From: Oscillospiraceae bacterium
GTDB lineage: Bacteria > Bacillota > Clostridia > Oscillospirales > WRJC01
Reading direction: 5' to 3'
Assembly: GCA_009780985.1 (NCBI GenBank)
Contig: WQYZ01000002.1
Coordinates: 1 to 62,691, forward strand
Length of the DNA: 62,691 nt
The notes under the pieces were generated by a model, which worked only from the letters and a program-made list of their open reading frames with translations, ran no database searches and was not told the DNA's origin. Below are positions 1,351-62,492 of the stretch, piece by piece; the stretch's first letter is position 1; every line of letters starts with the position of its first letter. A program made the position numbers and the translations under genes.

Positions 1351-2413
1351 ATGTCAGAACTATTGAAACCCAGAAAAAATTATTCAGCAAATACTGATAA
1401 CAATTCGCAAAACGACAACTATGCTTTATTTAACGACATCATGCAGCATAAAAGCGCGCACTGCGGATTTTGGCACGGCAATCCGCATCCGGAAAGTTAT
1501 AAAAAATTATTTGATTATTTCGGAGTGAAAACGATTTTGAACTCGGTCTGAAACTCGGCGACACTTTTATGTGGGTTATCGACGGCTGGGGAGAATATAA
1601 ACACTCACTCGGCGATTATCTATTTGATTTATACAAAGACAAAGATATTCCTCATTTACGCGATCTCACGGATGACGATGTTGATTTGGTCAAAAAATTA
1701 AACTGGCCCGATGTCAAATATTATGATTTTTCCAATTTCGAAAATGCGGCAAATATGGCGAAAGAGTACGGCGTGCCAATATTGAGCGGCGCATGGGCGC
1801 CGTTTTATCACAATGTTGCGGATATGTTCGGTATGGAAAATTATTTTGTAAAAATGCACACAGACCCTCATTTAGTTACGGCGGTGACCGAAAAATTAGT
1901 AGATTTTTATCTCGATATGAACAAAAAACTATTCGACGCGTATGCTACGGATATAAACGCGTGTTTTTTCGGCAACGACTACGGCACTCAGCTTGATTTA
2001 ATGATTTCGCCGGAGATGTTCAAAAAATTCGTCATGCCGTATCAGAAAAAAATCGCCGATCAGGCAAAATCATATAATCTTTACACATTTTTGCACTCGT
2101 GCGGCTCTGTCGTAAAAGCGATTCCCGAAATAATAGCCGCCGGAATCGACGGACTTCACCCAATACAGGCGCTTGCCGCCGGGATGAACGCTGAAAATCT
2201 CGCGGATAAATTAAAGATAAATTGGTTTTTGTCGGCGGAGTGGACACGCAGGTTCTTTTGAGAGAGGGTACGGCAAAACAGATAAAAGACGATGTGCGGC
2301 GGCTGAAAAGTCTTTTCGGCAATAATTTCTTCGTATCGCCGAGCCATGAGGCTGTCCTGCCGGATATACCTCCGGGAAACATCGCGGCTATGTCGGAAGC
2401 GGCTTGGGAATAA
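1351..2413 (+). pseudogene. Frameshifted uroporphyrinogen decarboxylase (URO-D) family gene
   Basis: ORFs 1351-1551, 1569-2261 and 2222-2413 lie in three frames. Together they align along the intact paralog 31281-32393 (FLHSCGSV..GIDGLHPIQ / VFVGGVDTQ..SPSHEAV versus HHTCGSV..GVDILNPIQ / SFWGGIDTQ..SPAHCIQ). The frame shifts are near 1525 and 2213. Confidence 0.8.
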
Positions 2414-2464
2414 AGTGACGTTTTGGGGAAGCAGAATTTTTTTCAAAAATAATAGAAATTTAAC

Positions 2465-2493
2465 TTGCATTTTTTATTTATTTATGATATAAT
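2465..2493 (+). promoter_or_regulatory. Candidate sigma-A promoter for secG
   Basis: TTGCAT-17 nt-TATAAT with a TGa extended -10, about 60 nt upstream of secG. Confidence 0.45.
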
Positions 2494-2555
2494 AACTTTT
2501 ATATAGTATTTAAATAAGATTATGTGTTTAATTTTCAGGAGGTTGTAATTGTAAT

Positions 2556-2798
2556 ATGAGCATAGTTGAATGGATTTTCGGAGGAATACTTTTATTCTTC
2601 GCAGTATTTCTCGTAGTTGCTGTATTATTGCAGCACGGTAAAACCCACTATCTGTCCGGCACAATCGCCGGCGGAGCGGAGACTTTCTTTGGCAAAGAAA
2701 AAGGCAGAACAATGGATAAAATGCTCTCGACTGTAACATCAATAGTGGCTGTCGTATTTGTTATCGCCGTTCTTGTTCTTTACGTACTGCAAAGTTAA
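2556..2798 (+). CDS. secG: Preprotein translocase subunit SecG
   Basis: 80 aa with two TM helices and a central GGAETFFG-type loop. AGGAGG RBS upstream. Confidence 0.9.
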   Translation: MSIVEWIFGGILLFFAVFLVVAVLLQHGKTHYLSGTIAGGAETFFGKEKGRTMDKMLSTVTSIVAVVFVIAVLVLYVLQS

Positions 2799-2825
2799 TA
2801 TATTAATATAAAAATAACAAAAACA

Positions 2826-2857
2826 GAGGCGGAATTATTTTCCGTCTCGTATTTTTA
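2826..2857 (+). terminator. Intrinsic terminator after secG
   Basis: GAGGCGGAA-ttatt-TTCCGTCTC stem (one G-U pair) followed by a T-rich tract. Confidence 0.6.
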
Positions 2858-2867
2858 TTATATGTCT

Positions 2868-4001
2868 TTAAGACGTCGCGCCCGTCGTATCGGTATTTGC
2901 GTTAGTCGCCCGAGCAGTATTCTGCGCGGCTGCTGCAGTAGTCGTCGTACCTGCCGCCGGAACAACCTGCTTTCTGTAGGCGCTGTACAGCGTCAGCGCA
3001 TCCGTATACCTTGGAACATAAAACATCACGCCGTTTTCTTCCATGTAATCTCCCGGATACTGCAGCACTTCAGGCGTTTGATACGCCGTAGACAGCGAAA
3101 AAATCAAATCGGTATAACTGTTAAACGTTTTTGCGTCTATATTTGTATTAACCGCGCTGCTTTGAATCGCATTATAAATATCCTGCGCCTTAGATAAATT
3201 TTCAAGCGTTATTTTCTGCCTGAGAAATTCTTTTATAAAATCTATCTGTACTGAGGTTCTCTCTTCGTTTCCGGCGGCATAACCTTTATACCGGAGAAGC
3301 TCTATGGCTTCTTCCCCGTCTATAAGCTGCTGACCTGCTTTTAAATCTATTTCGGGTTTACTTTGATTCTTGGGATTGTCGGGATCGTCAGGATCGAAAG
3401 GAGGTTTGCTTTTTTCTTTTGCATCGTCGTACGGCAGCGGCTTATAATACATATCCATCGGCACGTTGTAATTAATATCGCCCAGAATGTCAAAAACACT
3501 CTTTATGGTATCATAGTTTACAACGCAGTAATAATCCATTTTAAGCCCCGTATACGACTTGACTGCCGCAAGCAGGGTATTAATGCCGTATTCCGCGTAA
3601 ACTGCGCCCAATCTTAATGTATAACCCTTTGCGTCCACTTTCATATCGCATGAAAGCGGCGAAATCATAATCGTTTTTGTGATTGCGTTTATATTGAGCA
3701 TAATAATAGTGTCGGCTTCACTTTTTGCATTGTCCTGCGATTCTCCGGCGTCCACCCCTACAAGCAGAGCCGAAAACACAGTGCTGTCTCCGTCCGGAAT
3801 ATCCGTATTGTCTATTGTTGTGGTTTCAAGATTGTTGTCTGGCGTGGTATCAGTATTATTATCCGAAGTTTCAGTAGTGGTCCCTGTTATGTCAGGTGTT
3901 ATATTGGTGTTTACATATTTTACTATAAAATATCCGATCGTCCCGAAAAGTAATAAAGAAATAAACAAAGCGAGAAAAAAATTCCTCAAACTCGACAGCA
4001 T
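2868..4001 (-). CDS. LytR/CpsA/Psr (LCP) family cell-envelope phosphotransferase
   Basis: N-terminal TM anchor and an LCP core (LLVGVD..SEADTIIMLNI...RLGAVY..YCVVNYD..). Low-complexity Thr/Ala C-terminus. Confidence 0.88.
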   Translation of the reverse strand: MLSSLRNFFLALFISLLLFGTIGYFIVKYVNTNITPDITGTTTETSDNNTDTTPDNNLETTTIDNTDIPDGDSTVFSALLVGVDAGESQDNAKSEADTIIMLNINAITKTIMISPLSCDMKVDAKGYTLRLGAVYAEYGINTLLAAVKSYTGLKMDYYCVVNYDTIKSVFDILGDINYNVPMDMYYKPLPYDDAKEKSKPPFDPDDPDNPKNQSKPEIDLKAGQQLIDGEEAIELLRYKGYAAGNEERTSVQIDFIKEFLRQKITLENLSKAQDIYNAIQSSAVNTNIDAKTFNSYTDLIFSLSTAYQTPEVLQYPGDYMEENGVMFYVPRYTDALTLYSAYRKQVVPAAGTTTTAAAAQNTARATNANTDTTGATS

Positions 4002-4887: not shown

Positions 4888-5892
4888 TTAAATTTTTTTC
4901 AAGACTTTTCCAAGCAAATCAACGCACGCCTGAACGTCGTCCATACTGCACAATTCCGCGCCGCTGTGCATATATCTCGTCGGAACGGATATTGCCCCCG
5001 CGATGCTCCCTGCTCCCGCGGACTGCATAACAGCCGTATCGGTTCCGCCCGCAGCCAAAATCTCGGACTGGTATTTTATATTATTTTCTTTTGCCGTCTG
5101 CATAAGAAGATTTACCATATCTTTATGGCATATAACGGAGCTGTCCATTAATTTTATTGCCGCTCCGTCCCCGATTTTTGTCGCCATAGGCAGACATTCC
5201 GGAGTGTCCCCTGTTCTTGTGACGTCCACTGCTATAGAGTAATCCGGCATAATAAACTGCGCGGCTGTCCTCGCGCCTCTCAGCCCGACTTCTTCCTGCG
5301 CTGTAAACACAAAATACAAATCGCTTTCGAGTTTTGTATTTTTCATGTTTAACAGCGTCTGAATCAAAACAGCGCACGAAATTTTATTGTCGAGTTTTGC
5401 CGCGGCTATTCTGTTGTTCATAAGAGTTATTATTTTGGGCGCGATAGTGCATGTATCTCCGATTTTTACTTTTATCTCGGCATCTGCCTTATCTTTGGCG
5501 CCTATATCAATATACATTTTGGAAGCATCATACTCGTTCGGTTTTACATTTCCTTCCGGTACGATAACGCCGTGAAGCCCGTTCTTGAACAGAATCTCGC
5601 CGTACGCCGCAGAAATCCAGTTTATCCCACCGACGCGGCTTACTCTTATAAACCCGCTGTCTTCGATAAACGTCACGATAAATCCTATTTCGTCCATATG
5701 CGCCGCTGTCATAATTTTTTTTGCGTTCACGTTCCCTTCGCTGCTTTTCTTTACGGCGATAAGATTGCCCAATGCGTCCGATTTAATCTCGTCCGAGCAG
5801 CCCGCTATCAATTCGCGTATCTCGTCAGATACGGCTTCTTCCGCGCCTGATACAGATACGGCGTTTACTAATTTTTTCAATATATCAATCAT
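4888..5892 (-). CDS. M42 family metallopeptidase (TET/FrvX-type aminopeptidase)
   Basis: AAHMDEIGFIV, FTAQEEVGLRGA and PTRYMHS motifs. Confidence 0.9.
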   Translation of the reverse strand: MIDILKKLVNAVSVSGAEEAVSDEIRELIAGCSDEIKSDALGNLIAVKKSSEGNVNAKKIMTAAHMDEIGFIVTFIEDSGFIRVSRVGGINWISAAYGEILFKNGLHGVIVPEGNVKPNEYDASKMYIDIGAKDKADAEIKVKIGDTCTIAPKIITLMNNRIAAAKLDNKISCAVLIQTLLNMKNTKLESDLYFVFTAQEEVGLRGARTAAQFIMPDYSIAVDVTRTGDTPECLPMATKIGDGAAIKLMDSSVICHKDMVNLLMQTAKENNIKYQSEILAAGGTDTAVMQSAGAGSIAGAISVPTRYMHSGAELCSMDDVQACVDLLGKVLKKI

Positions 5893-11856: not shown

Positions 11857-11884
11857 GTAGGGCACGGATTAATCCGCGCCCTAC
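11857..11884. repeat. REP-like GTAG-headed palindrome between convergent genes
   Basis: GTAGGGCaCGGATTAATCCGcGCCCTAC. Confidence 0.65.
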
Positions 11885-11913: not shown

Positions 11914-14718
11914 TTATTTAAAATCTACGGCTATCGTCACGACTTCATATGCCGGAACTTCGACCGATACAGAATTATCGCTGACTTTGAGAGGTCTTTT
12001 GTACGTCTCATTCAAGTCCACGACGATCGCTTTTACCACGTCGCGCTTGAAGTCGAGAGTTGCGGTTGAGCCTTTGCCGTTTGCGTCGTACAAACGGATT
12101 ATCACAGTCTTGCCGTCTTTTGAATCTTCCGCCGTCTTGATGGCAGAAAGTATAACGTCGCCGGACAGCTTGAAGAAACTTCCGTCAAGAGGCAAATCGC
12201 CGCCGTGTTTTGTGCCGGATATAAAGGCGATTGGGTGTACAAACTCGTCTCTGATTTTTTTCAGCGTCTGATTTTGCAAATCACCGGGTATCGCTACGCC
12301 GATTGATATGTGATGTACGCCGTATTCCGGGTACGGGTCGGGGTCGTATGACGAACGGATCAAATTGACCGAAATTGAATTGTCAACGGTTCTGAATCCG
12401 TACTTCGTATCAGTGACAACCATTACCGGCAAACCTTCGTTTGTCGCCGGAATTGCGACTGCGTAACTGTTGCCGGGCATATCATGCTTATGTTCATCTC
12501 TGTCAATACTGCCGAACGGTATGTCATATCTGTATTTATTGCTGTCAAAATCCCACCGGGTTAAGAAATTCAACTGCGGCACTCCTTCTCCGGGTCTGCC
12601 GACTTCGTGCCAATCTGCCGTAATATCAAATCTTAACGTACTACTGTTATTATCAAGAGATATTTTGACATTTACTTTTGAGTTCTTGAATTTCATATCA
12701 TACTGAACCCATTTTTTTATTCCCCACAGATTTTGGTCATATACTCGCACTTTATTTTGATTAAGATTTTCGACTTCCATATATGGACCTACTCTCCAGG
12801 CAGTCATGCCGTTTACATCGTCCTCCTGAATATAACGCAATCCCCCTGAACCAACCATAAGTAACTCTTTGCCGGTTTTCTTGTCTAATATTGAGATTAA
12901 ATACATACTATTACGGGCGAATACTGCTTTAATTTTATCGTTTTCGAGAACTATATCATCGTCCGAGAAATCGTCTTTGCGTCCGCCCCTGAATGTGTCA
13001 AGGGATAAGCCTTGACGCGGTTCTTCCGTCAGGACATACGTCGCATATCCAAGAGCCGGAATTTTTGCCATAAACGCGATTTTAAAATTGTTATGCCCCC
13101 AGTAGCCGCTTTGACCCTGAGTGAGTTTCCATTCGACTGGTGTATCGTCAGAACCCTTTACACTAAGCTGTCCAATATCGTAATTCCAGTCCCAGACGGT
13201 TATTTCAACCGGATATTCACGGTCAAATTCTGTGGAATTAAACAAATGGAATATCCTGATTTTCCCGTTGCCTCTTTCCGCTTGCGGGAACTTGAATCCC
13301 TGACCGTATTCTACCGCATATCCTACTCCGCCGCCCTCTGCGATTGCGTGTTTGTCGATTTCGACAGGAATTGCGGACGTGTCAATTTTCGACGTTATTG
13401 CGCGCAGCGCGTTTGTGACGTTTGTATTGGCAGTCGCAAGAACTTTCTGGAATTCGCCGAGAGCGTATTCCCTTGTGTCAACTATGCCGGAGCCCGGAAG
13501 TATATCGTGGAAATGGTTGAACAAAACTTTTTTCCATGCTTCTGCAAAATTCTTGGAGTACGGTTTGCCGCTGAACAGAGAGGCAAATGCGCCGATTGTT
13601 TCGGCTTCGAACAGTTTATCCTCCGATATTCTGTTTGACATTTTTATTCTCGACTGCGAAGTATAACAGCCTGTGAATACAAAGTTCAATTCCTGATTTA
13701 TTACCGGGAAATTGTCTTTGTGTGCTTCGAGTTTTTTGAAGAACTCGTGATATGTGCCGAATTTTATTGTCGGCATAACAGTCCAAGTCATCATATCCGC
13801 GATTATCTCGACATCGCGCCTCGTCGGACCGCCGCCGTGATCTCCGACGCCGTAAACTTTGAGCATAACGTCCGTGCCGTATTTTTTACAGAAATTGGGA
13901 ACGTCGAAGAACATATCGTATTCTATAGAACCGCCGTACCACCATGGGTCCTTATATACCAATACTTCCGCGCCGTTGCGGGACCGCCATCTGTATATAG
14001 TCTCGTCGTCGAATGCGCGGCAGTGATAATAGTATTTCACCCCGCCTTTATTTAATATTTCGGGGATGCTCCAGTTGTGACCGAAAGTATCGGGCTCAAA
14101 ATCAAGCTGCATAGAATCGGGTTTTACGTCCAATAATTTTGATAAATATCTTTTTGTATAGAGAATATGCCTTGCCAGCGATTCGCCGTTTGGCATATTT
14201 TTGTCCGTCTCGACCCAAGTCGAAGCCGCTATTTCCCATCTGCCCTCTTTTATGCGAGCTTTGATTTCTTCGAGCATATCAGGGTCATTTTCTTCAATTA
14301 TTTTATAAACCGATGCCTGAGACTGCGAGAATGTAAATTGCGGATATTCGTTCATCAAATCAAGCATGGTCCTGAACGTGTCGACTGTGACAGCCGCGGT
14401 TTCCTGAAATCCCCACATCCAGTTCATGTCGATGTGCGCGTGCGACACGCATATGACCGTCGTTTCTTTTGCCAGCTTTGCCATAAATTCAAGTTTCTTT
14501 TCTGCTTCCTGCGCCGCCGGAGCGGTTATTGCGCCGTTTTTGTTCATATCGGCAATCAAAGAATCGACGACGGGCTCAATTTTTACGTCGTATTTATTTC
14601 CGTGTGCCGCCGAGAGTTTGAGAGCGTATCCGATTTGGCTTGAAATTCGGGACGCATGATAATTGCCGTGGGATAAATTCTTTAATAAAACAAGTTTATC
14701 AGTAAGAGATAATGCCAT
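11914..14718 (-). CDS. GH38 alpha-mannosidase
   Basis: HAHIDMNWMW metal site and a GH38 core (GRWEI..TWVETD.N.P.GESL). The ATG at 14718 is preceded by GAGGAGG. Confidence 0.92.
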   Translation of the reverse strand: MALSLTDKLVLLKNLSHGNYHASRISSQIGYALKLSAAHGNKYDVKIEPVVDSLIADMNKNGAITAPAAQEAEKKLEFMAKLAKETTVICVSHAHIDMNWMWGFQETAAVTVDTFRTMLDLMNEYPQFTFSQSQASVYKIIEENDPDMLEEIKARIKEGRWEIAASTWVETDKNMPNGESLARHILYTKRYLSKLLDVKPDSMQLDFEPDTFGHNWSIPEILNKGGVKYYYHCRAFDDETIYRWRSRNGAEVLVYKDPWWYGGSIEYDMFFDVPNFCKKYGTDVMLKVYGVGDHGGGPTRRDVEIIADMMTWTVMPTIKFGTYHEFFKKLEAHKDNFPVINQELNFVFTGCYTSQSRIKMSNRISEDKLFEAETIGAFASLFSGKPYSKNFAEAWKKVLFNHFHDILPGSGIVDTREYALGEFQKVLATANTNVTNALRAITSKIDTSAIPVEIDKHAIAEGGGVGYAVEYGQGFKFPQAERGNGKIRIFHLFNSTEFDREYPVEITVWDWNYDIGQLSVKGSDDTPVEWKLTQGQSGYWGHNNFKIAFMAKIPALGYATYVLTEEPRQGLSLDTFRGGRKDDFSDDDIVLENDKIKAVFARNSMYLISILDKKTGKELLMVGSGGLRYIQEDDVNGMTAWRVGPYMEVENLNQNKVRVYDQNLWGIKKWVQYDMKFKNSKVNVKISLDNNSSTLRFDITADWHEVGRPGEGVPQLNFLTRWDFDSNKYRYDIPFGSIDRDEHKHDMPGNSYAVAIPATNEGLPVMVVTDTKYGFRTVDNSISVNLIRSSYDPDPYPEYGVHHISIGVAIPGDLQNQTLKKIRDEFVHPIAFISGTKHGGDLPLDGSFFKLSGDVILSAIKTAEDSKDGKTVIIRLYDANGKGSTATLDFKRDVVKAIVVDLNETYKRPLKVSDNSVSVEVPAYEVVTIAVDFK

Positions 14719-16724: not shown

Positions 16725-16887
16725 AGACCACCCCGTCGTCGTTTTCCTCGCCATAAATGGCTCGACGACGCCACCCCTCCCCAGAGGGGAATTTGGTACA
16801 ACTTCCAAATGTTAGACAAAATTCCCCTCTGGGGAGGGGTGGCAAACGCCACAAACGCAGTTTGTGTAGCGTTTGACGGGGTGGTCT
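16725..16887. repeat. Compound GC-rich palindromic element (13-bp terminal inverted repeats enclosing three hairpins)
   Basis: AGACCACCCCGTC pairs with GACGGGGTGGTCT. The inner element has a perfect 25-bp stem, GCCACCCCTCCCCAGAGGGGAATTT / AAATTCCCCTCTGGGGAGGGGTGGC, flanked by two smaller hairpins. Confidence 0.8.
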
Positions 16888-18427: not shown

Positions 18428-19510
18428 ATGGAAATAAAATCGTTGATTGAAAAGTTTTCGCATGTCGTATCTGTTACAGGATACGAATACATGGCGGAAA
18501 CGGCAATAAAAAAAATAATAGACGAAGATTTTCAAGGAGTTTTCGACGAAGTTTCTTTCGATAAACTTGGCAGCTGCCGTTTGGTGAAAAAAGGCGTGAG
18601 AAAAATCGGCGGCGTAAAAAAAATCATGCTCGACGCGCATATCGACCAAATCGGTCTTGTTGTGACAGAAATCTTGGACGGCGGATTTCTGAGAGTTAAA
18701 CAGCTCGGCGGCATTGACAACAACATCCTGATTGCATCTGAATTTTACGTTTACACCAAAAGTTTCGACGACGAAAATCCGTTTATATTTTCGGCTGAAA
18801 ACAGAATACCAGCAATAGCCGTAAGCGTACCGCCTCATCTGAAAAAGACAAAAGGCGACGAACTACCCAAAATTGAGGATTTGTATCTTGACACGGGTTA
18901 CGATTCAAAGAAAGACCTTGAAAAAATCGTGAAAGTCGGCTGTCCGGTGAGTTTTAAGTCCGACTTTCTGAGCCTTGAAAACAATCTTGTCTCGTCCGTC
19001 GGTCTTGACGACAGACTGTGCGCCTTAACTCTCATGCTCGCGGTGAAATCGCTGAAAAGCCTGCCCGACGCCGATGTTCATATAGTTTTGAGCGTGAGCG
19101 AAGAAACCGGCGGTCCCGGCGCGGCAACTGCGGCGTTTGACATACAGCCGGATTTTGCCGCCGTTCTGGATGTGGGATTTGCAAAAGTCCCCGAAGTTGA
19201 CGCGGGGGCGTTTGAGATATGCAAAGGCGCGGGCATATCGTATTCTGCGGCGACCAATATGAATCTGACGAAAAAAGTTATAGCTATTGCCAAAGAGAAA
19301 AAAATTCCCATACAGCCTATCGCCGAGCCGCGAAGCACCGGCACAAACGCCGACGAAATTCAGATAACAGGCGAAGGAATACCATGCGTACTTATCTCTG
19401 TTCCAGTAAAAAATATGCACACGTTTAACGAGATATGTTCCGTGCAGGACGTAGAGAGTACGGCAAAACTTGTGGCTGAGATTATAGAAAACGCAGGGAA
19501 ATTGATTTAA
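18428..19510 (+). CDS. M42 family metallopeptidase
   Basis: DAHIDQIGLVV, SVSEETGGPGA and PVKNMHT motifs. Confidence 0.9.
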   Translation: MEIKSLIEKFSHVVSVTGYEYMAETAIKKIIDEDFQGVFDEVSFDKLGSCRLVKKGVRKIGGVKKIMLDAHIDQIGLVVTEILDGGFLRVKQLGGIDNNILIASEFYVYTKSFDDENPFIFSAENRIPAIAVSVPPHLKKTKGDELPKIEDLYLDTGYDSKKDLEKIVKVGCPVSFKSDFLSLENNLVSSVGLDDRLCALTLMLAVKSLKSLPDADVHIVLSVSEETGGPGAATAAFDIQPDFAAVLDVGFAKVPEVDAGAFEICKGAGISYSAATNMNLTKKVIAIAKEKKIPIQPIAEPRSTGTNADEIQITGEGIPCVLISVPVKNMHTFNEICSVQDVESTAKLVAEIIENAGKLI

Positions 19511-19527: not shown

Positions 19528-20607
19528 ATGATAAATAAAGATTTGTTGAAAAAATTATGTCTCGCGTTCGGTCCGAGCGGAAACGAGTGCGAAGTACGAA
19601 ATATAATTATTGATGAAATCAAAAACTGCGCCGACGATTATTATACTGACAAAGTCGGCAATTTAATCGCGTTCAAAAAAGGCGCAAAAACTCCAATGAA
19701 AAAGCGACTTTTCGCGGCTCATATGGACGAAGTCGGGTTTATGATTTCATCTGTCGATAGCGACGGGTATTTAAGGTTTAAAAGTCTCGGCGGAATCGAA
19801 AGTTCCGTTATACTCGGCAAACAGGCAATAGTCGGCGAAAAAAGATTTGCCGCGGTTTTTGGCGGCAAACCCATACATTTATTAAAAAGCGGCGAAGAAA
19901 ATAAAGCGCGTCCCGCCGACAGTATTTATCTTGACATAGGCGCGCGCAAAAAAGATGAGAAAAAAGAGAAAGACGACGATAAAGAGAAAAATAAAAAAGA
20001 AGTTAAAGAGGACAAAGAAGATCAGAAACCCGTTGAAGTCGGCGAATTTGCAGTGTTTAAGTCTGAGTTTCTGGAATTGGGGCAAAACAAAGTCAAATGC
20101 AAGGCTATTGACGACCGTTTCGGGTGCTGTATTTTAATAGAGATGCTAAAATCAAAACTTGAATGCGATTCTTATTTTGCTTTCACAATCTGCGAAGAAA
20201 TCGGGCTTCGCGGGGCGCGGACTGCGTCGAATATAGTGAAAGCCGATACGGCGGTGATTTTTGAGGCGACAACGGCGGGCGATATTTACGACAGAAAAGA
20301 GAAAAACAAAGTGTGCTCTCTTGGAAACGGCGCGGTTATATCCATAATGGACAACTCGACTATATACGACAGAAATCTCATAAATCTTGCACTTGATACG
20401 GCTAAAAGCAAGAATATAAAAGCACAGGTAAAACAAGCAGTCGCGGGCGGCAACGACGCCGGAGCGGTTCAAAGGTCTGGTAAAGGCGTAGAAATTCTCG
20501 CAATTTCTTTACCGACACGATATATACATTCCCCGTCGTGCGTCGCGGATTACGGCGATATGGAGGAATGCCTCAGACTCGCGCTTGAAATGGAGAGGAT
20601 TATGTAA
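19528..20607 (+). CDS. M42 family metallopeptidase with a charged low-complexity insertion
   Basis: AAHMDEVGFMI, TICEEIGLRGA and PTRYIHS motifs, with a KKDEKKEKDDDKEKNKKEVKEDKEDQK insert. Confidence 0.9.
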   Translation: MINKDLLKKLCLAFGPSGNECEVRNIIIDEIKNCADDYYTDKVGNLIAFKKGAKTPMKKRLFAAHMDEVGFMISSVDSDGYLRFKSLGGIESSVILGKQAIVGEKRFAAVFGGKPIHLLKSGEENKARPADSIYLDIGARKKDEKKEKDDDKEKNKKEVKEDKEDQKPVEVGEFAVFKSEFLELGQNKVKCKAIDDRFGCCILIEMLKSKLECDSYFAFTICEEIGLRGARTASNIVKADTAVIFEATTAGDIYDRKEKNKVCSLGNGAVISIMDNSTIYDRNLINLALDTAKSKNIKAQVKQAVAGGNDAGAVQRSGKGVEILAISLPTRYIHSPSCVADYGDMEECLRLALEMERIM

Positions 20608-29653: not shown

Positions 29654-29682
29654 TGTAGGGGCGAACTGTGTTCGCCCCTACA
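29654..29682. repeat. REP-like GTAG-headed hairpin, bidirectional terminator position
   Basis: TGTAGGGGCGAAC-tgt-GTTCGCCCCTACA (13-bp stem) followed by GATTTTT, between convergent genes. Confidence 0.75.
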
Positions 29683-31280: not shown

Positions 31281-32393
31281 TCACATATAAATCGCGACGA
31301 CGTTCTCCGCAGGAACGTCTTCCTGAATACAGTGCGCCGGAGAAAGTATATATCCCCCGTCCGTGCCGAAAATCGACAGTATCCTCTCCGCTTCTTCCCT
31401 GACCTGTTTGGGAGAACTGTTGACAAGCAAATCCTGCGTGTCTATCCCTCCCCAAAACGACATCTGTTTCCCGTATTCGGATTTTAACCGCTCCGGTTCC
31501 ATTTCAAATGCGTTGGGCTGAATCGGGTTGAGAATATCCACGCCGCAGTCAATCAGCGACGGAATCAGCCTGAATACAGACCCGCACGTATGGTGCTGAT
31601 AATACGCTTTTGTGAAAGTTTTTGTGTATCTTATCCGCTCTTTCATATACGGCGCGACAAACTCGTCAAACATATTCACAGACATAAATAATCCGCGCTG
31701 TGTGCCGAAATCGTCGCCGCTCGTCGTGCAGTGAATATATTCGCCGATTGCCCCGTAATACATTTTTATGACTTCTTTCTGATATTCCAGAATTTTTTCA
31801 AAAAACCAGTGAACTGTTTCGGGTTCTCCCGCAAGCCTGTACAAAAAGTCGTCGAACCCGAACATCCAGCAGCCGATTTCAAATATCCCGAAACACGGGT
31901 GTTCCCCGACTACGGCGTAATCCGTGTTTTCATACAGATTTTTTGCGCGGATTCTGTACTGTTCAAACACATTTTTATCTATGTCGGACGCTTTGGGAAA
32001 CGGGAATTTTTTCACTTCGTCAAGCGTCATATCTTTCAACGGATTTTTCGCTATTTCCCAGCGACCGCCAACGTCGGCGTAACCTATTCCCCATATATCC
32101 ACTCCGACATATTTGCCGGCGTAATCTATGTATTTATATAACGCGTCGTTTTTCGGCGAAGGCATACCGCCGGTCATTCGCGTGTCGATATGCAGTTTCT
32201 CAAGTATCCGCTCGTCCGTGTATCCCGGACCCAAATATTCCCCGCTTATGTTCAGTACTTTCTTTATATCTTCGACTGTTTTTGAACTCATAATCATAGT
32301 CTGCGGGCACCCGTATAAATCAAATACGGCGCGGTCAACCGTTTTATGCGCCGCCGCGTTTAAAAATCTTTCCCGGCTTGTGATTTTGGGCAT
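31281..32393 (-). CDS. Uroporphyrinogen decarboxylase (URO-D) family protein
   Basis: HHTCGSV..GVDILNPIQ..FWGGIDTQ..GGYILSPAHCIQEDVP. Confidence 0.88.
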   Translation of the reverse strand: MPKITSRERFLNAAAHKTVDRAVFDLYGCPQTMIMSSKTVEDIKKVLNISGEYLGPGYTDERILEKLHIDTRMTGGMPSPKNDALYKYIDYAGKYVGVDIWGIGYADVGGRWEIAKNPLKDMTLDEVKKFPFPKASDIDKNVFEQYRIRAKNLYENTDYAVVGEHPCFGIFEIGCWMFGFDDFLYRLAGEPETVHWFFEKILEYQKEVIKMYYGAIGEYIHCTTSGDDFGTQRGLFMSVNMFDEFVAPYMKERIRYTKTFTKAYYQHHTCGSVFRLIPSLIDCGVDILNPIQPNAFEMEPERLKSEYGKQMSFWGGIDTQDLLVNSSPKQVREEAERILSIFGTDGGYILSPAHCIQEDVPAENVVAIYM

Positions 32394-32412: not shown

Positions 32413-32437
32413 TAGGGCGGGAAAACCCCGCCCCTAC
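32413..32437 (-). repeat. REP-like GTAG-headed hairpin between co-directional genes
   Basis: Minus strand reads GTAGGGGCGGGgttttCCCGCCCTA. Confidence 0.55.
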
Positions 32438-36282: not shown

Positions 36283-36329
36283 GACGGGCGGCAATAAATT
36301 CGCCTACGGCGAATTTTAGCCGCCCCTAC
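36283..36329. repeat. REP-like palindrome between co-directional genes
   Basis: GGGCGGC..AAATTCGCC-tac-GGCGAATTT..GCCGCCCCTAC. The left head is degenerate. Confidence 0.55.
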
Positions 36330-37117: not shown

Positions 37118-37480
37118 TCATGTTATTTCCGTATTCATTAAGTCTTTAACTACTTTTATCAACTTTTTATCCGCGCAATGAACTATACAGGCATACGCAA
37201 GGACATTGGTTATTGTGCCGTAAGCGTGGCTCGCCGTATTTCTGAATTCTTTTATTATCGGCTTTTTCAACGGGATTTGCGCTAATACATCCTCGCTCAT
37301 CGGAACAGTTAATTCAAAAATATCAGCTACCGTTTGCACCATTCCGCGGCGCATCATAATATGTAAGTTATTTAGGTCGTTGGGACATGATATTTTTAAT
37401 TCTTTTATTGCAGAAGATAGTGCCATTTGATTTTCATAAATTTTCTTTAATAAATACAGGTCTTTTCTGGTCATAACCAT
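37118..37480 (-). CDS. hepT: HepT (DUF86) toxin of an MNT/HepT type VII TA pair
   Basis: R-x4-H-x-Y motif (RNTASHAY). Overlaps the upstream NTase gene by 10 nt. Confidence 0.85.
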   Translation of the reverse strand: MVMTRKDLYLLKKIYENQMALSSAIKELKISCPNDLNNLHIMMRRGMVQTVADIFELTVPMSEDVLAQIPLKKPIIKEFRNTASHAYGTITNVLAYACIVHCADKKLIKVVKDLMNTEIT

Positions 37481-37797
37481 ATGACCTCATCTTTTACGGC
37501 AATATCGTTTAAATGATTTAAAGGGTCGTTTTCAAAATGAATCAAATCAACTTCTCTTCCATATATATTAATTAATGTTTCATTTATCTTGTTGCATAAT
37601 TCACAAAACCGGGTGAACCGTTCAAACTGGAAATCAGGAGTAGAAGCATATTCTATTAATATATCTATGTCGCTGTCAGCGTTATAATTTCCGCGTGCGA
37701 GCGAACCGAAAATCCCTATTTTATTCACAAGTTCAGAACTGTTGGAAACTATACTATGAATATCTGATGAAACATTGTTTAAATTTAAAATCTTCAC
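37471..37797 (-). CDS. mntA: MNT nucleotidyltransferase antitoxin
   Basis: GSLARGNYNADSDIDILI (GS-x10-DxD). Confidence 0.85.
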   Translation of the reverse strand: MKILNLNNVSSDIHSIVSNSSELVNKIGIFGSLARGNYNADSDIDILIEYASTPDFQFERFTRFCELCNKINETLINIYGREVDLIHFENDPLNHLNDIAVKDEVIWL

Positions 37798-37909
37798 TTA
37801 AAAACATTCGCCTCTTTTTGGTTTATATAAATTAAATTTTATTTGTGTTTTGTGAAAGTTGTGTAAATTAATATGTAAAGTATTTATTTGAATATAGAAA
37901 ATGCTTTTA

Positions 37910-38314
37910 CTATTCGCCGTTTATCACTCCAATTTGATATTCATCCTCATAAATTATTCTACCTGCATAATTTGTATAAACAATATCATAAGGGATTTGA
38001 TACTTGTCTAATAATTTAAATATGGGAGCTAAACGCTCAAACATAATTTTTGCATTATCATTATTTTTGAAAAAGGTAATTGCGCCGATGGTATTGGCAT
38101 TGGGATCGTCATTGTTTTCTCCGTAAAAAGGAGGATACGGTAAATTTTCCACAAACCAATTCTCAGTCTCCATAAATTTTTCTTTATCTTCTTCGCTGAA
38201 TATGTCGTTTTTGACTTTACGCCAGCCAAGCGCAAAAATGCCTACAGGTTTTTTTGTTACCCATGCTGTTTCACGCCCCTGTATCCGCACATATTTAGGT
38301 AAATCCATTTTCAA
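37910..38314 (-). CDS. Hypothetical protein
   Basis: 134-aa ORF with no recognisable motif. Confidence 0.65.
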   Translation of the reverse strand: MKMDLPKYVRIQGRETAWVTKKPVGIFALGWRKVKNDIFSEEDKEKFMETENWFVENLPYPPFYGENNDDPNANTIGAITFFKNNDNAKIMFERLAPIFKLLDKYQIPYDIVYTNYAGRIIYEDEYQIGVINGE

Positions 38315-38357: not shown

Positions 38358-38818
38358 AAACTGCTGTCAATCCGTAAGCCGAGTTCTGTCTTGAACAATC
38401 ATCTATCTTGACCGCCGGTTGCCTGGCGGTTCTTTGCCGCCTCATGCGGAAAAACAGGGCGCGTTCTGCAGGACTTTTAAATCCCGCATAATTCCGTCTT
38501 ACATCGGCGTTGCTTCGGATAGGGTTTACACATTTAGTCTGCGATTACAAGAATCACAGATATTTGCGCAAAGTTGCCATTGCGCCGGTGAGCTCTTACC
38601 TCGCCTTTTCATCCTTACATGTAGGGACGAACTGTGTTCGTCCGTTAATAGCGGTGTATTGCGGACGAACACAGTTCGTCCCTACATGCGGTAATTTTCT
38701 GTTGCACTTTCCCTAAAGTTGCCTTCGGCGGACGTTATCCGTTATCCTTTGCCCTAAAAGCTCGGACTTTCCTCACTCAGATTTTACTCTGGCGCGATTG
38801 TTTGTACTGGCAGCAGTT
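38358..38818 (-). ncRNA. rnpB: RNase P RNA (bacterial type A-like)
   Basis: Minus strand carries GAGGAAAGUCCGAGC, GUGCAACAGAAAAUUACCGC, GGUAAGAGCUCACC and ACAGAACUCGGCUUAC in canonical order. P1 pairing is CUGCUG/CAGCAG, followed by a U-run. Confidence 0.88.
38618..38688. repeat. REP-like inverted doublet forming the P12 hairpin of rnpB
   Basis: Perfect 26-bp stem CATGTAGGGACGAACTGTGTTCGTCC / GGACGAACACAGTTCGTCCCTACATG. Each arm is nearly identical to the intergenic hairpin at 29654. Confidence 0.85.
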
Positions 38819-38833
38819 TGTTATATATGCTAT

Positions 38834-38862
38834 ATTATAAACTATCTGTATGAATTTGTCAA
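38834..38862 (-). promoter_or_regulatory. Consensus sigma-A promoter for rnpB
   Basis: Minus strand reads TTGACA-17 nt-TATAAT, ending about 15 nt before the P1 5' strand. Confidence 0.65.
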
Positions 38863-42485: not shown

Positions 42486-43430
42486 TCAGGCATAATCCCT
42501 GTATTTTTTCCAGACGTCAAGAACCAGCAAATATCTTTCGAGCGGGAGACCGTGAAAAGGTACGTTGCTTGTGCAGAAAATATAACCGCCGTTCGGTTTA
42601 CCGTTTTCGATTGCATATTCCGCGCTGGCGATTACTTCCTCATTCGTGCCGGTCTGCATGAGAGCGCAGTTGACGTTTCCGCAAAGGCAGATTTTATCGC
42701 CGATTAATCTTTTTACTTCTTTTATGTCAACTCTTGCCATAGGGTCGAGGGAATGTATGCCGTGAGGCTCGCACTCTGCGAGCTGGTCGAGGATAGGCAT
42801 AATATCGCCGTCGGTGTGCTTGATTGCATATGCGCCGGAATCCCGTATGCTTTTTATTATTCTTTTCAGATACGGGGTTATGTATTCCCTAAACATAACG
42901 GGAGAGAGGAACGGACCGGAATTATAACAGTAATCGGAGCATAAAATAAACGAGTCAAAACCGGCGTCAACAGCCTTTTTATTGGATTCTATCGCCCAGT
43001 TTGCCCAATCCTCAGCCTGTTGTTTAACCCCGTCCGGGTCGTCCGCAATTCTGTACGCGAAGTCGTACATACCGTTTCCGTCGGGAATACTGAACGTTCC
43101 GTCGCCGTGTTTTGTAAGCATATATTTGTCCCCGGAGATTTTTCTGATTATTCTTGCGGTTTCAAGCTGATTTTCAAAGTTCAGATGGTGTATGGGAATT
43201 ATGGAATATTCGAGTTTCTCAAAAAGTTCAAGCATAAATTCTGCGTTTTCGCGAAGTTTTTTATCTGTTTCGGATTTGGATAATCCGTCGAGTTCATGCT
43301 GTCTTAAATAATCTTTACCCATATATTCCCTTGTAAGCTGGAATTCAAGTTCAAAAGTCGGGATTTGGTCCGGTATTTTGCACGTCAAAGCGGCGATCGC
43401 GCGCTCTTTGGGCGTCATTTGCGCAGGCAT
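42486..43430 (-). CDS. Uroporphyrinogen decarboxylase (URO-D) family protein
   Basis: TPKERAIAAL N-terminus, KHTDGDI..GIHSLDP..CGNVN..GGYIFCTSN. Confidence 0.86.
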   Translation of the reverse strand: MPAQMTPKERAIAALTCKIPDQIPTFELEFQLTREYMGKDYLRQHELDGLSKSETDKKLRENAEFMLELFEKLEYSIIPIHHLNFENQLETARIIRKISGDKYMLTKHGDGTFSIPDGNGMYDFAYRIADDPDGVKQQAEDWANWAIESNKKAVDAGFDSFILCSDYCYNSGPFLSPVMFREYITPYLKRIIKSIRDSGAYAIKHTDGDIMPILDQLAECEPHGIHSLDPMARVDIKEVKRLIGDKICLCGNVNCALMQTGTNEEVIASAEYAIENGKPNGGYIFCTSNVPFHGLPLERYLLVLDVWKKYRDYA

Positions 43431-45185: not shown

Positions 45186-45307
45186 AGATGTGTCCGGAAA
45201 CCCCGATTTACGTAGGGGCGGATGGTAATCCGCCCGTGATTTTACGGGACGATTACTTAAATTCAACGAAGTTTAATTTGTGTCCCCTACAGTTTCCGGA
45301 CAGATCT
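45186..45307. repeat. Compound REP-like element with terminal inverted repeats (variant copy of 62383-62474)
   Basis: Shares identical blocks of 16, 45 and 24 nt with the 62-kb copy and differs by two internal indel segments. Confidence 0.85.
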
Positions 45308-45358
45308 ATTATACATCAACAAAAATCGTTTGTAAATAGAAAAAATATATTATTTTAT

Positions 45359-47085: not shown

Positions 47086-47110
47086 TAAATATGTCTTAAA
47101 TCTATTTAAC

Positions 47111-47138
47111 GCAGAGACACGATATATCGTGTCTCTGC
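47111..47138. terminator. Bidirectional terminator hairpin
   Basis: GCAGAGACACGA-tata-TCGTGTCTCTGC between convergent tadA and the RCC1 gene. Confidence 0.7.
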
Positions 47139-47147
47139 GTTATTCTC

Positions 47148-52731: not shown

Positions 52732-52811
52732 AATCCGTAGGGGCGCGCATTGCGTGTCCGTGTCGTAAATGAGACTCAATCACGGACGCGCAATGCGCGC
52801 CCCTACGGATT
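52732..52811. repeat. REP-like inverted doublet (31-bp stem)
   Basis: AATCCGTAGGGGCGCGCATTGCGTGTCCGTG pairs with CACGGACGCGCAATGCGCGCCCCTACGGATT: 30 Watson-Crick pairs plus one G-T, with an 18-nt loop. Confidence 0.85.
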
Positions 52812-60391: not shown

Positions 60392-61255
60392 ATGGCTTCA
60401 AATCTTACTCCTACTGAAATTAACGATTTAATGCGCAGAGCGAGCGGTTTCGACCGCGACTGCGATTGTAAAAATAAAAACAATAAATGTGATAAAAACC
60501 ACAACAGAGATAACGACTGCAAATGCCATGACAAAGATGATGATTGCAAATGCCGTGATCACGGCAAAGACGATTGCGACAGACGCAGATGCGTTACTGT
60601 CTGCGACGGCGAAAAAGGAGAGCGCGGAGAGCGTGGCGAAAAAGGTGAGCGCGGCGAAAGAGGAGAGAATGGACGACATGGTGAGCGCGGTGAACGTGGC
60701 GAGAAAGGCGAACGCGGTCCTCAGGGACCTAGAGGAGAGCGCGGCGAAAGAGGCGAAAATGGTAGAAACGGTGAACGTGGCGAGCGTGGTGAAAGAGGAG
60801 AGCGCGGAGAACGCGGGGAAAGAGGAGAGCGCGGAGAAAAAGGCGAAAATTTGGAAACTCTGGCTTTATCCGCGCACAATCTGTGCGAACAGGAAATCTG
60901 CGTCGACGAATGCGGCGCTCATATTCCGCTGCCTGAAATAACGTACAGCAACGGGTTTACTCCCGACGAATGTTTCCGCAAATTTAAAGTGCACGAAAGC
61001 GGGCATTATTTCATCACCTACGAAATTTATACTTCAGATCCAAGTCATATATCATCGGCGGTATTTGACAACGACCATGTTATAGAAACAACGATTTGTA
61101 TACCGAGACTCAACGGCGACCAGTTTACTGTTTCAACTATTGTATTCCTGCATAAAGACGATTATGTATCGTTAGTATTGCTCGGGGAAGAAAAAGGAAT
61201 ATCTTTACAGCCCGGCACCGGCGCAAGCCTTGATATATTCAGAATTGCGAAATAA
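60392..61255 (+). CDS. Collagen-like triple-helix repeat protein with a Cys-rich N-terminus and a globular C-terminal domain (BclA-like architecture)
   Basis: 27 uninterrupted G-X-Y triplets, mostly GER/GEK. N-terminal DCDCK..DCKCH..DCKCR..DCD..C..C cluster and a C-terminus of about 135 aa rich in beta-strand-forming residues. Confidence 0.88.
   Translation: MASNLTPTEINDLMRRASGFDRDCDCKNKNNKCDKNHNRDNDCKCHDKDDDCKCRDHGKDDCDRRRCVTVCDGEKGERGERGEKGERGERGENGRHGERGERGEKGERGPQGPRGERGERGENGRNGERGERGERGERGERGERGERGEKGENLETLALSAHNLCEQEICVDECGAHIPLPEITYSNGFTPDECFRKFKVHESGHYFITYEIYTSDPSHISSAVFDNDHVIETTICIPRLNGDQFTVSTIVFLHKDDYVSLVLLGEEKGISLQPGTGASLDIFRIAK
60608..60850 (+). repeat. Coding 9-bp tandem repeat (GGN GAR MGN) encoding the collagen-like region
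   Basis: Direct read of GEKGERGER...GERGEKGEN. It creates spurious ORFs in other frames and on the other strand. Confidence 0.9.
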
Positions 61256-61262
61256 TAAAATC

Positions 61263-61294
61263 AAGGCTGGGGAAACATATGTTTCCCCAGCCTT
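61263..61294. terminator. Bidirectional terminator hairpin
   Basis: AAGGCTGGGGAAAC-atat-GTTTCCCCAGCCTT (14-bp perfect stem) between convergent genes. Confidence 0.78.
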
Positions 61295-61298
61295 TAAT

Positions 61299-62066
61299 TT
61301 ATATACTTATTCTGCTCAGAACATTGCCTATTCTGTCTTCATGTATTGCAATATCGAATTTATAATCAAAATCCGTTTCGGATTTATTAATAATAACGCT
61401 TTTTTTATCTTCTTTATTATTTTTATTATCCGAAAAGAAGTATCTTACATAATATGCCGCCGGATAAACTGAGAGAGACGTTCCTCCCACAATAAGCATA
61501 TCGGCGTTTAGCATATATTCTATAGCGGAATTTACGCAATCCTGATTTAACTGTTCTTCATAAAGCACAACGTCCGGTTTTACTATTCCGCCGCAACCGT
61601 CGCAGCATGGAACTCCAACGGCTTCTGCAATATAAGCCAAATCAAATTTCTTATGACATTTAATACAGAAATTTCTGGTTACGTTTCCGTGAAGCTCTAT
61701 AACATTTTTTGACCCCGCCTGCTGATGTAAATTGTCTATATTTTGCGTAATAACCGCTTTAAGTTTGCCTTTTTCTTCGAGCTTCGCAAGAACTTTATGC
61801 GCATTATTGGGTTTTGCGTCAAGATACAGCATTTTGGATTTGTAAAATTCATAAAATTCTTTGGTGTGAGCGAAAAAATAAGTGCGCGACAGCATGACTT
61901 CCGGCGGTGCATTATACTTTTTACCCTGTTCGTTGTACAGTCCGCCCGCACTTCTGAAATCCGGTATGCCGCTTTCGGTCGAAACTCCGGCTCCGCCGAA
62001 AAACACGATATTGTTTGATTTGTCGATATATTCAGACAATTTTTTTATTTTTTCTTCGAAATTCAT
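61299..62066 (-). CDS. cobB: NAD-dependent protein deacylase (Sir2 family)
   Basis: GAGVSTESGIPDFRS, QNIDNLH, ELHG and a CIKC...CDGC zinc ribbon. The ATG at 62066 lies directly after the upstream XRE stop codon. Confidence 0.9.
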   Translation of the reverse strand: MNFEEKIKKLSEYIDKSNNIVFFGGAGVSTESGIPDFRSAGGLYNEQGKKYNAPPEVMLSRTYFFAHTKEFYEFYKSKMLYLDAKPNNAHKVLAKLEEKGKLKAVITQNIDNLHQQAGSKNVIELHGNVTRNFCIKCHKKFDLAYIAEAVGVPCCDGCGGIVKPDVVLYEEQLNQDCVNSAIEYMLNADMLIVGGTSLSVYPAAYYVRYFFSDNKNNKEDKKSVIINKSETDFDYKFDIAIHEDRIGNVLSRISI

Positions 62067-62336: not shown

Positions 62337-62382
62337 GTAAATATAGTATGCAAATACCATATTGCGAAAAAATAACAATAAT

Positions 62383-62474
62383 AGATGTGTCCGGAAACTG
62401 TAGGGGCGGATGGTAATCCGCCCGTGATTTTACGGGACGATTACCATCGTCCCCTACAGTTTCCGGACAGATCT
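62383..62474. repeat. Compound REP-like element with terminal inverted repeats (intact copy)
   Basis: AGATGTGTCCGGAAACTGTAGGGG ... CCCCTACAGTTTCCGGACAGATCT (one mismatch). The inner arms GGCGGATggtaATCCGCC and GGGACGATtaccATCGTCCC are each self-complementary. Confidence 0.85.
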
Positions 62475-62492
62475 AATAAAGGAGAAAAAAAC

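Follow-up and report, generated by a model that had tools for sequence, protein, structure and literature searches.

The distal part of helix P12 in the RNase P RNA gene (rnpB) of this Oscillospiraceae bacterium is very probably a dimer of a GTAG-tagged repetitive extragenic palindrome (REP), with its GTAG heads outward as in a REPIN, that entered the gene secondarily and is transcribed as a likely tolerated, near-neutral passenger of the ribozyme. A short native P12 would have had its apex replaced or interrupted by the dimer, with the conserved base of the helix (CC-G-C-A-U / A-U-G-U-AA-GG) kept. The P12 arms are members of a REP family that is dispersed through the window (i.e., the whole 62,691-nt, or 62.7-kb, stretch of DNA that was analysed). 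The rnpB locus comprises the following features:

38359..38814, minus strand: rnpB, class A RNase P RNA, 456 nt (RF00010, 194 bits, E 3e-61, model positions 1-367/367)
38834..38862, minus strand: rnpB promoter, consensus sigma-70, TTGACA-17 nt-TATAAT (12/12 consensus positions)
38613..38691, minus strand: whole P12 helix, made up of the CC/GG and G.U base, the 27-bp repeat-derived stem, and the loop (covariance-model alignment; fold)
38663..38685, minus strand: 5' REP unit of the dimer in the RNA, GTAGGGACGAACTGTGTTCGTCC, itself an 8-bp palindrome with a 3-nt loop
38645..38661, minus strand: spacer or apical loop of 17 nt, CAAUACACCGCUAUUAA, unique in the window
38621..38643, plus strand: 3' REP unit of the dimer, the same 23-nt sequence as the 5' unit

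The single Rfam match in the entire window is RF00010 at 38814..38359 on the minus strand (cmscan), where the score of 194 bits compares with a gathering score of 100 and the full model is covered. The conserved class A blocks are all kept (GAGGAAAGUCC, ACAGAAA, GUAAGG-UGAAA, and ACAGAAC-CGGCUUA). In the long-range P4 pairing, the A of GUCCGAGC pairs with the U of ACUCGGCUU; this A/U pair is common to most, not all, members of the clade, and G/C is found there in three relatives. The initial annotation had read a minus-strand rnpB with its conserved blocks and an RNA of about 460 nt, both in agreement with the covariance model. The promoter lies directly upstream of the gene; with this consensus promoter and all conserved blocks in place, the repeat should be transcribed together with the rest of the ribozyme. 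No change is seen in the conserved junctions that touch the substrate region, and catalytic function is probably retained by the insert-bearing RNA. The insert is most likely tolerated as a near-neutral passenger, because distal P12 is a peripheral and dispensable part of the RNA and the most length-variable one.

RF00010 scores range from 188 to 211 bits in this clade, compared with 250-290 bits in more distant Clostridia, which have a shorter P12 and fewer peripheral insertions. The termite-gut relative L082 scores only 188 bits despite a short P12, so other clade-specific insertions also lower the covariance-model score. Within rnpB, further lineage-specific helix extensions of the clade are found at 38530-38585 and 38440-38500 (minus strand). 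An extra hairpin follows P13/P14 (CUGUGAUU...AAUCGCAG, covarying with CCGCAGAA...UUCUGCGG in L082), and an inserted hairpin lies in the P16/P17 region; non-standard pairs are flagged there by the covariance model.

In the RF00010 alignment, the surplus nucleotides of the RNA are all assigned to a single insertion within the P12 hairpin, bounded by ACAGAAAAUU-ACCGC and GUAAGGAUGAAAAGG; the P12 arms of the model are ACCGCAUGUAGG on the left and CCUACAUGUAAGG on the right. A repeat search returns the same interval as a 71-nt hairpin (38618-38688), the arms of which (38618-38644 and 38662-38688) are 27 nt each, 100% complementary, and 17 nt apart. The 71-nt hairpin that the initial annotation had placed at the P12 position is therefore located inside P12 by the strong RF00010 match that had been suggested as a check. 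The stem is perfect, as had been described, with a length of 27 rather than 26 bp, and the arm sequence given earlier was correct apart from its last base, which in the arm (GTAGGGACGAACTGTGTTCGTCCG) is G and not C. Beyond the 27 bp, the RNA stem extends through a G.U pair, an AA bulge, and then CC/GG, and the resulting rod of ~30 bp has a predicted folding energy of -55.4 kcal/mol, compared with a shuffle mean of -18.4 (z = -12.5). In the RNA, the repeat would form this rod projecting from the specificity domain. Inside the arm, GGACGAAC/GTTCGTCC is an 8-bp palindrome with a 3-nt loop, and the GTAG heads of the two arms face outward in a head-to-head dimer; the insert is thus an inverted pair of palindromes with no tandem period. 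Across 117 arbitrarily sampled class A genes, the distance from J11/12 to J12/13 has a median of 31 nt; in the window it is 82 nt. No complement of at least 6 nt to the apical loop occurs elsewhere in rnpB, and a pseudoknot partner for the loop was rejected on this ground.

The motif GTAGGGRCG occurs 10 times in the window, compared with 0.29 occurrences expected (0 of 100 shuffles reach 10), and GTAG with a directly adjoining stem of at least 7 bp occurs 13 times, compared with 3.4 in shuffles. The window holds 11 GTAGGG units in all, and the family occupies eight loci, seven of which are intergenic, the rnpB copy being the exception; five loci lie 5-15 nt after a stop codon. Single units are present at 11857, 29655, 32437 (minus strand), and 36329 (minus strand), and four of the eight loci are inverted pairs with GTAG outside (38621/38685 in rnpB, 45212/45290, 52737/52806, and 62400/62457). 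The loci outside rnpB are:

11857..11884: single palindrome GTAGGGCACGGATTAATCCGCGCCCTAC, between convergent genes
29655..29681: single palindrome of the P12-arm subfamily, GTAGGGGCGAAC TGT GTTCGCCCCTAC, 5 nt after a stop codon and between convergent genes
32413..32437, minus strand: single unit GTAGGGGCGGGGTTTTCCCGCCCTA, 12 nt past the end of a GH2 gene (from its stop codon)
36285..36329, minus strand: unit with a longer, composite stem (GTAGGGGCGGC...GCCGCCCG), 15 nt past the stop codon of ThuA
45187..45310: head-to-head dimer enclosed by an outer palindrome (GTGTCCGGAAAC...), another copy of the element at 62379
52732..52811: head-to-head dimer with 31-nt arms, 97% complementary, and an 18-nt spacer, 11 nt after a stop codon
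62379..62478: head-to-head heterodimer in an outer palindrome, with 47-nt arms, 87% complementary

The hairpin at 29655-29681 (GTAGGGGCGAACTGTGTTCGCCCCTAC) differs from the P12 arm by the compensatory pair G7A/C21T and in the last base, which bears out the near identity and the compensatory change reported for a hairpin at 29654 in the initial annotation. The 23-nt arm pattern, with up to three mismatches, has a chance expectation of 0.00. Beyond GTAGGGGCG, the stems of the family vary widely; a dimer and a singlet represent the CGAAC type in the window, and two dimers represent the GGAT type. In the heterodimer at 62400, each unit has its own perfect stem and the long hairpin has mismatches. 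The elements at 45187-45310 and 62379-62478 are two copies of a composite of ~100 nt with the outer palindrome (T)GTCCGGAAAC...GTTTCCGGACA, and the 45187 copy has two stretches of extra DNA, one of ~10 nt in front of the first GTAG and one of ~26 nt within the second unit. Ordinary intrinsic terminators are only a partly tenable description of the family: the copy at 29655 is followed by a T-run, and most copies are without one. Three other hairpins in the window are unrelated to the GTAGGG family: a perfect 36-bp palindrome between convergent genes (47107-47142, TAACGCAGAGACACGATATATCGTGTCTCTGCGTTA), a hairpin with 33-nt arms (16770-16843, GCCACCCCTCCCCAGAGGGG...), and a terminator-like hairpin with 24-nt arms between convergent genes (61255-61302).

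In the published GTAG-REP superfamily, a unit of 20-40 bp (stem of 5-13 bp, loop of 2-20) bears a terminal GTAG tag; most are arranged as head-to-head dimers, and REPs also lie inside genes and pre-existing palindromes (Di Nocera et al. 2013, PMC3733652). The P12 unit fits this definition: its 23 nt comprise GTAG, a stem of 8 bp, and a loop of 3 nt. The family as a whole is likewise multi-copy, dispersed, mostly extragenic (7/8 loci intergenic in the 62.7-kb window), and found mostly just downstream of ORFs. As in GTAG REPs, a GTAG head is joined to a GC-rich 8-bp stem with a loop of 3-5 nt, inverted GTAG-out dimers that can fold as one long hairpin are frequent (4/8 loci), and some copies are nested in palindromes or genes. 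Unlike a classical REP family, the stems in the window are unusually heterogeneous. The dimers have the architecture of a REPIN (Bertels and Rainey 2011, PMC3116915; PMC3337134). Firmicutes are absent from the main text of the 2013 GTAG-REP survey (PMC3733652). A limited literature check found no description of a GTAGGG family in Clostridia.

The P12 region was compared across relatives from several collections. A contig scan with the pattern GAGGAAAGTCCGAGCTN{40,60}GGAAAGTGCNACAGAAAA yielded at least 119 loci from many phyla; L082 (termite-gut MAG Oscillospiraceae bacterium Nt197P3bin116) is the sole close relative, and the closest rnpB in the genome collection, among the matches listed. The same sample was reused as the background for P12 length and GTAGGG hairpin density. 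Relatives L121-L127 came from a clade-specific rnpB pattern applied to a metagenome collection, and L129-L132 and L136 came from ENA assemblies by rnpB-ThuA synteny. The flanks of P12 are invariant across the clade (...GGGAAAGTGCAACAGAAAA before and GTAAGG[A/G]TGAAAAGG after), and TTACCGC stands right before P12 in nearly all clade relatives. The content of P12 is as follows:

Window: REP doublet
L125: CAT-GTAGGGACGAAC-AAT-GTTCACCCCTAC-GTG, a REP singlet with two internal mismatches and the same junction as the window
L124 and L082: CCC-GCAA-GGG
L132: short, CAGCAGGG-TATA-CCCGCTG
L129: short hairpin
L121, L126, L127, L122, L123, L130, and L136: unrelated AT-rich hairpins
L131: long, with an internal GTAG-headed 10-bp hairpin of different sequence

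The doublet is present in P12 of none of the 10 relatives with a full-length rnpB in the tree. Eight of these 10 have a short or AT-rich P12 without a GTAG palindrome, the exceptions being L125 and L131; the comparison of related rnpB genes suggested in the initial annotation thus returned relatives without the long P12, and neither of the two refuting conditions named there was borne out. The L131 hairpin was rejected as a family member (it does not recur in its 11.6-kb locus and fails the stem criteria) and is a possible third case only. In distant Clostridia, P12 continues beyond its conserved base for 5 bp in L039 (CCGCAUGC-GUUU-GCAUGUAAGG) and for 3 bp in L105. L136 retains the CAU/AUG pairs found on either side of the repeat in the window, which suggests that the insert replaced only the apex of the native hairpin.

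Neighbour-joining trees were built from the non-P12 columns of rnpB. In the first tree (nine sequences), the window groups with L121 (96% bootstrap) and then with L127 (92%), and L125, L129, and L131 form a second group (100%). In a larger tree (11 sequences and two outgroups), L136 and L132 join the window group and the same split into two subclades is recovered, with supports that are mostly low (80% for the window and L121) and that may be misassigned after re-rooting. The nearest rnpB relatives of the window are without the repeat, and L125, the only other carrier, belongs to the other subclade.

A function for the insert is improbable, whether as an RNase III site that splits the ribozyme, as a stabiliser of S-domain folding, or as a handle for a hairpin-binding protein. 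A duplex of ~30 bp exceeds the usual length requirement of RNase III. The stem (27/27) is also more perfect than those of the other window dimers (97% and 87%), but recent insertion explains perfect arms equally well. Apical extensions of P12 can gain function, as in D. radiodurans, where a pseudoknot between P12 and P9 matters for activity (PMC8457005); the P12 loop of the window, however, has no complement elsewhere in rnpB. The nearest relatives are without the insert, which is thus not required. The two arm hairpins, of 8 bp each, may also become kinetically trapped while the RNA is being transcribed.

It is somewhat less probable still that P12 was acquired as a cassette from a co-resident relative through homologous recombination rather than by transposition into rnpB in this lineage. 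P12 is flanked by clade-invariant blocks (at least 36 nt upstream and ~38 nt downstream), its content is discordant with the rnpB tree, and all of the relatives come from the same kinds of samples. These homology arms are short, however, and no donor with the same P12 doublet was found among the relatives: L125 has a singlet with a different loop and two mismatches.

The direction of transfer, from the dispersed family into P12 or from P12 into the family, is informed most strongly by L132, a member of the rnpB subclade of the window. This relative carries an intergenic head-to-head dimer (14488-14561), the two arms of which (GTAGGGACGAACTGTGTTCGTCCG ... CGGACGAACACAGTTCGTCCCTAC) are each identical to a P12 arm at 24/24 nt, the A/T variant and the final G among them; a 26-nt spacer, different from that in P12, separates them, and the P12 of L132 itself is short. 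The same dimer thus exists as a free-standing element outside rnpB. Around it, a 520-nt intergenic region holds a BIME-like GTAGGG cluster (14340-14640) composed of GTAGGGGACGCTGTCCTCAGCGTCCC, a GGGTCGCAGAGGACTGCGACCCC palindrome, the CGAAC dimer, and a CCCCTAC end at ~14626. Head-to-head dimers are found in both L132 and L134, GTAGGG palindromes with other stems in L082, L123, L125, and L134, and hairpins of the GTAGGGGCGAAC type as far afield as loci of Nitrospiria and Planctomycetota. The initial annotation had left two alternatives, a repeat colonising a structural RNA or P12 as the source of the repeat family. The sequence comparisons support the first, through the free-standing L132 dimer, the dispersed family, and the relatives without an insert. 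They disfavour the second, because the family has many stems, is present in relatives without a P12 copy, and includes the same dimer in L132, where P12 is short.

Only a slim chance attaches to the proposal that the palindrome is ancestral in P12 of the clade, or that P12 is the master copy of the GGGACGAAC subfamily, and that other members lost or overwrote it. The window and L125, from different subclades, both have CCGCAT-GTAGGGACGAAC at the 5' side of P12, and the same GTAGGGACGAAC head at the same junction in L125 could reflect ancient presence rather than recent insertion. The high transcription of rnpB, which often leaves its DNA single-stranded, would also favour the proposal. Against it, palindromes that share GTAGGG but have many other stems are found throughout these genomes as well as in unrelated phyla, and the identical dimer of L132 is intergenic. 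P12 lacks a GTAG-headed palindrome in 8 of the 11 rnpB sequences in the tree, which come from both subclades and include L121 and L136. Ancestry would require about five or more independent replacements, compared with two gains; as the nearest relatives lack the repeat and the second carrier belongs to the opposite subclade, the scenario of two gains is the more parsimonious.

An independent MEGAHIT assembly (L001, ENA ERZ27257292) is 99.7% identical to the window over 13.4 kb, with 36 substitutions and one 3-nt gap, none of them in rnpB. Its rnpB, including the hairpin, is identical to that of the window, and the hairpin is therefore real sequence. Assemblers sometimes create perfect inverted repeats, but an artefact has almost no probability for a hairpin that is internal to a 62.7-kb window and shared with an assembly that differs elsewhere, nor has a chance likeness to the repeat, given the zero expectation for the arm pattern.

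The repeat would most likely have reached P12 either through copying directed to hairpins or single strands, carried out by a RAYT-type HUH tyrosine transposase, or through gene conversion with a copy elsewhere. The dimers at 62379 and 45187 are nested in palindromes, as are REP dimers in published genomes (PMC3733652). In REPIN-RAYT systems, near-identical dimers form a population within one genome and the cognate RAYT is usually flanked by REPs; no RAYT was found in the 62.7 kb of the genome covered or in the related loci. No Y1/HUH transposase (RAYT, IS200) was found among the 61 ORFs of the window (Pfam, 62.7 kb of the genome) or among the called genes of L001 and L128-L137. A tblastn search with IS608 TnpA gave no match in ~1 Mb and carries low weight.

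The GTAG...CTAC singlets (29655 and P12 of L125) may be dimers that collapsed by deletion between 8-nt direct repeats (GTTCGTCC...GTTCGTCC). Deletion between the GTTCGTCC repeats of the doublet gives exactly a GTAG...CTAC singlet with a TGT loop, as at 29655, and P12 of L125 would be a decayed form of this singlet. The match of the collapse product to the 29655 form fits the published view that REP singlets are remnants of dimers (PMC3733652).

A further reading, which goes beyond secondary entry and is itself unlikely, holds that P12 is a recurrent, preferred landing site for GTAG REPs or REPINs in this clade and that the ~30-bp duplex is processed, for example by RNase III, to give a split or remodelled RNase P RNA. 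Such a landing site would imply that at least two lineages were hit separately at one and the same junction (CCGCAU|GUAGGG), and machinery that targets the apex of a pre-existing DNA hairpin. If this were so, the series from no repeat to doublet to collapsed singlet, in a scaffold that aligns perfectly, would be a natural record of REPIN birth and decay.

Other features of the window concern the neighbourhood of rnpB and the gene content. Between rnpB and ThuA (37118-38314, minus strand) lie three small ORFs, which encode a 134-aa hypothetical protein, a 108-aa NTP_transf_2/Polbeta nucleotidyltransferase, and its 120-aa partner; the last two may form a toxin-antitoxin-like pair. In L121, ThuA directly follows rnpB and the three ORFs are absent, and the block looks like an accessory insertion beside rnpB. 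The window includes three URO-D family paralogues (1569-2261, 31281-32393, and 42486-43430), three M42 peptidase paralogues (4888-5892, 18428-19510, and 19528-20607), and several glycoside hydrolases (GH2, GH38), a content that fits a carbohydrate-degrading gut anaerobe. Firmicute-type genes encode an SLH-domain protein, a BclA-type collagen-like protein, LexA, and a Mur ligase, with Coat_F (Pfam) in L001. A look-up of the neighbouring GFO/IDH/MocA protein (TTG start) was without a match, and that of the ThuA protein returned L001.

The nearest precedent is the occurrence of STRR (short tandemly repeated repetitive) sequences in P12 of heterocyst-forming cyanobacteria, in which P12 is described as dispensable (Vioque 1997, Nucleic Acids Res 25:3471, as cited in PMC2858038); P12 is absent altogether in a few lineages (PMC2858038; bioRxiv 2020.03.05.979740). 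As far as the cyanobacterial case is described in the citing source, a dispersed genomic repeat there also occupies and lengthens P12 and is tolerated. STRRs are tandem heptamers, whereas a palindromic REP dimer with GTAG tags makes up the insert of the window; its host is a Firmicute of the Clostridia type, and close relatives differ in the state of P12 (none, singlet, or doublet). P12s built from heptamers or short tandem repeats are also found in unrelated phyla (L038, L107, L010, L056, and L074). The segment from J11/12 to J12/13 in L038 is ~183 nt, and GGAAGTA-type heptamers pair there with CTTCCCA repeats in P12; L107 (Planctomycetota) and L010 (Bacillota) have heptamer-like arrays in P12. 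From their sequences, these lengthened helices look like the STRR-in-P12 phenomenon outside cyanobacteria, and repeat accretion in P12 seems to be widespread.

Other mobile or intervening elements offer partial parallels. The Rickettsia palindromic elements (RPEs) lie inside protein genes. Like RPEs and intragenic REPs (PMC3733652), the P12 insert is a selfish palindrome tolerated at a permissive surface site of an essential product; unlike them, it resides in a ribozyme, where the palindrome is used directly as an RNA helix. Two GC-rich GTAGGG hairpins lie in frame within a Mur ligase gene of L082 (provisionally murD; 1920-3392, minus strand). They are located at 2111 and 2648, encode VGRDDPDAPRK and VGDGVLDVPH, and correspond to variable loops in comparison with the window orthologue (69% identity), so the GTAGGG family is also found inside an essential protein gene. 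Intervening sequences in helices of 23S rRNA are removed by RNase III. Like these, the P12 insert is a long extra hairpin at a peripheral helix of an essential structural RNA; unlike the insert, the 23S intervening sequences are not REP family members, and excision is a feature of theirs. In a limited literature check, neither a GTAG REP nor a REPIN dimer turned up in rnpB or another structural RNA gene, and no precedent for P12 insertions or REPs in rnpB was found beyond STRRs.

The finding does not challenge current understanding and is best seen as a tidy natural system. Palindromes of the REP and REPIN type are usually regarded as extragenic, yet they can become part of an essential ribozyme and be expressed within it, and the 1997 observation of STRRs in P12 is extended to a different class of repeat and a different phylum. 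Annotation is affected as well, since inserts of this kind make rnpB longer (~456 nt) and lower its score against the covariance model. The case also allows an in vivo test of how much helix extension and perfect-duplex length are tolerated by RNase P. Since the content of P12 varies among close relatives within invariant flanks, these genes provide a clean, alignable system for the insertion of REP dimers and their decay to singlets.
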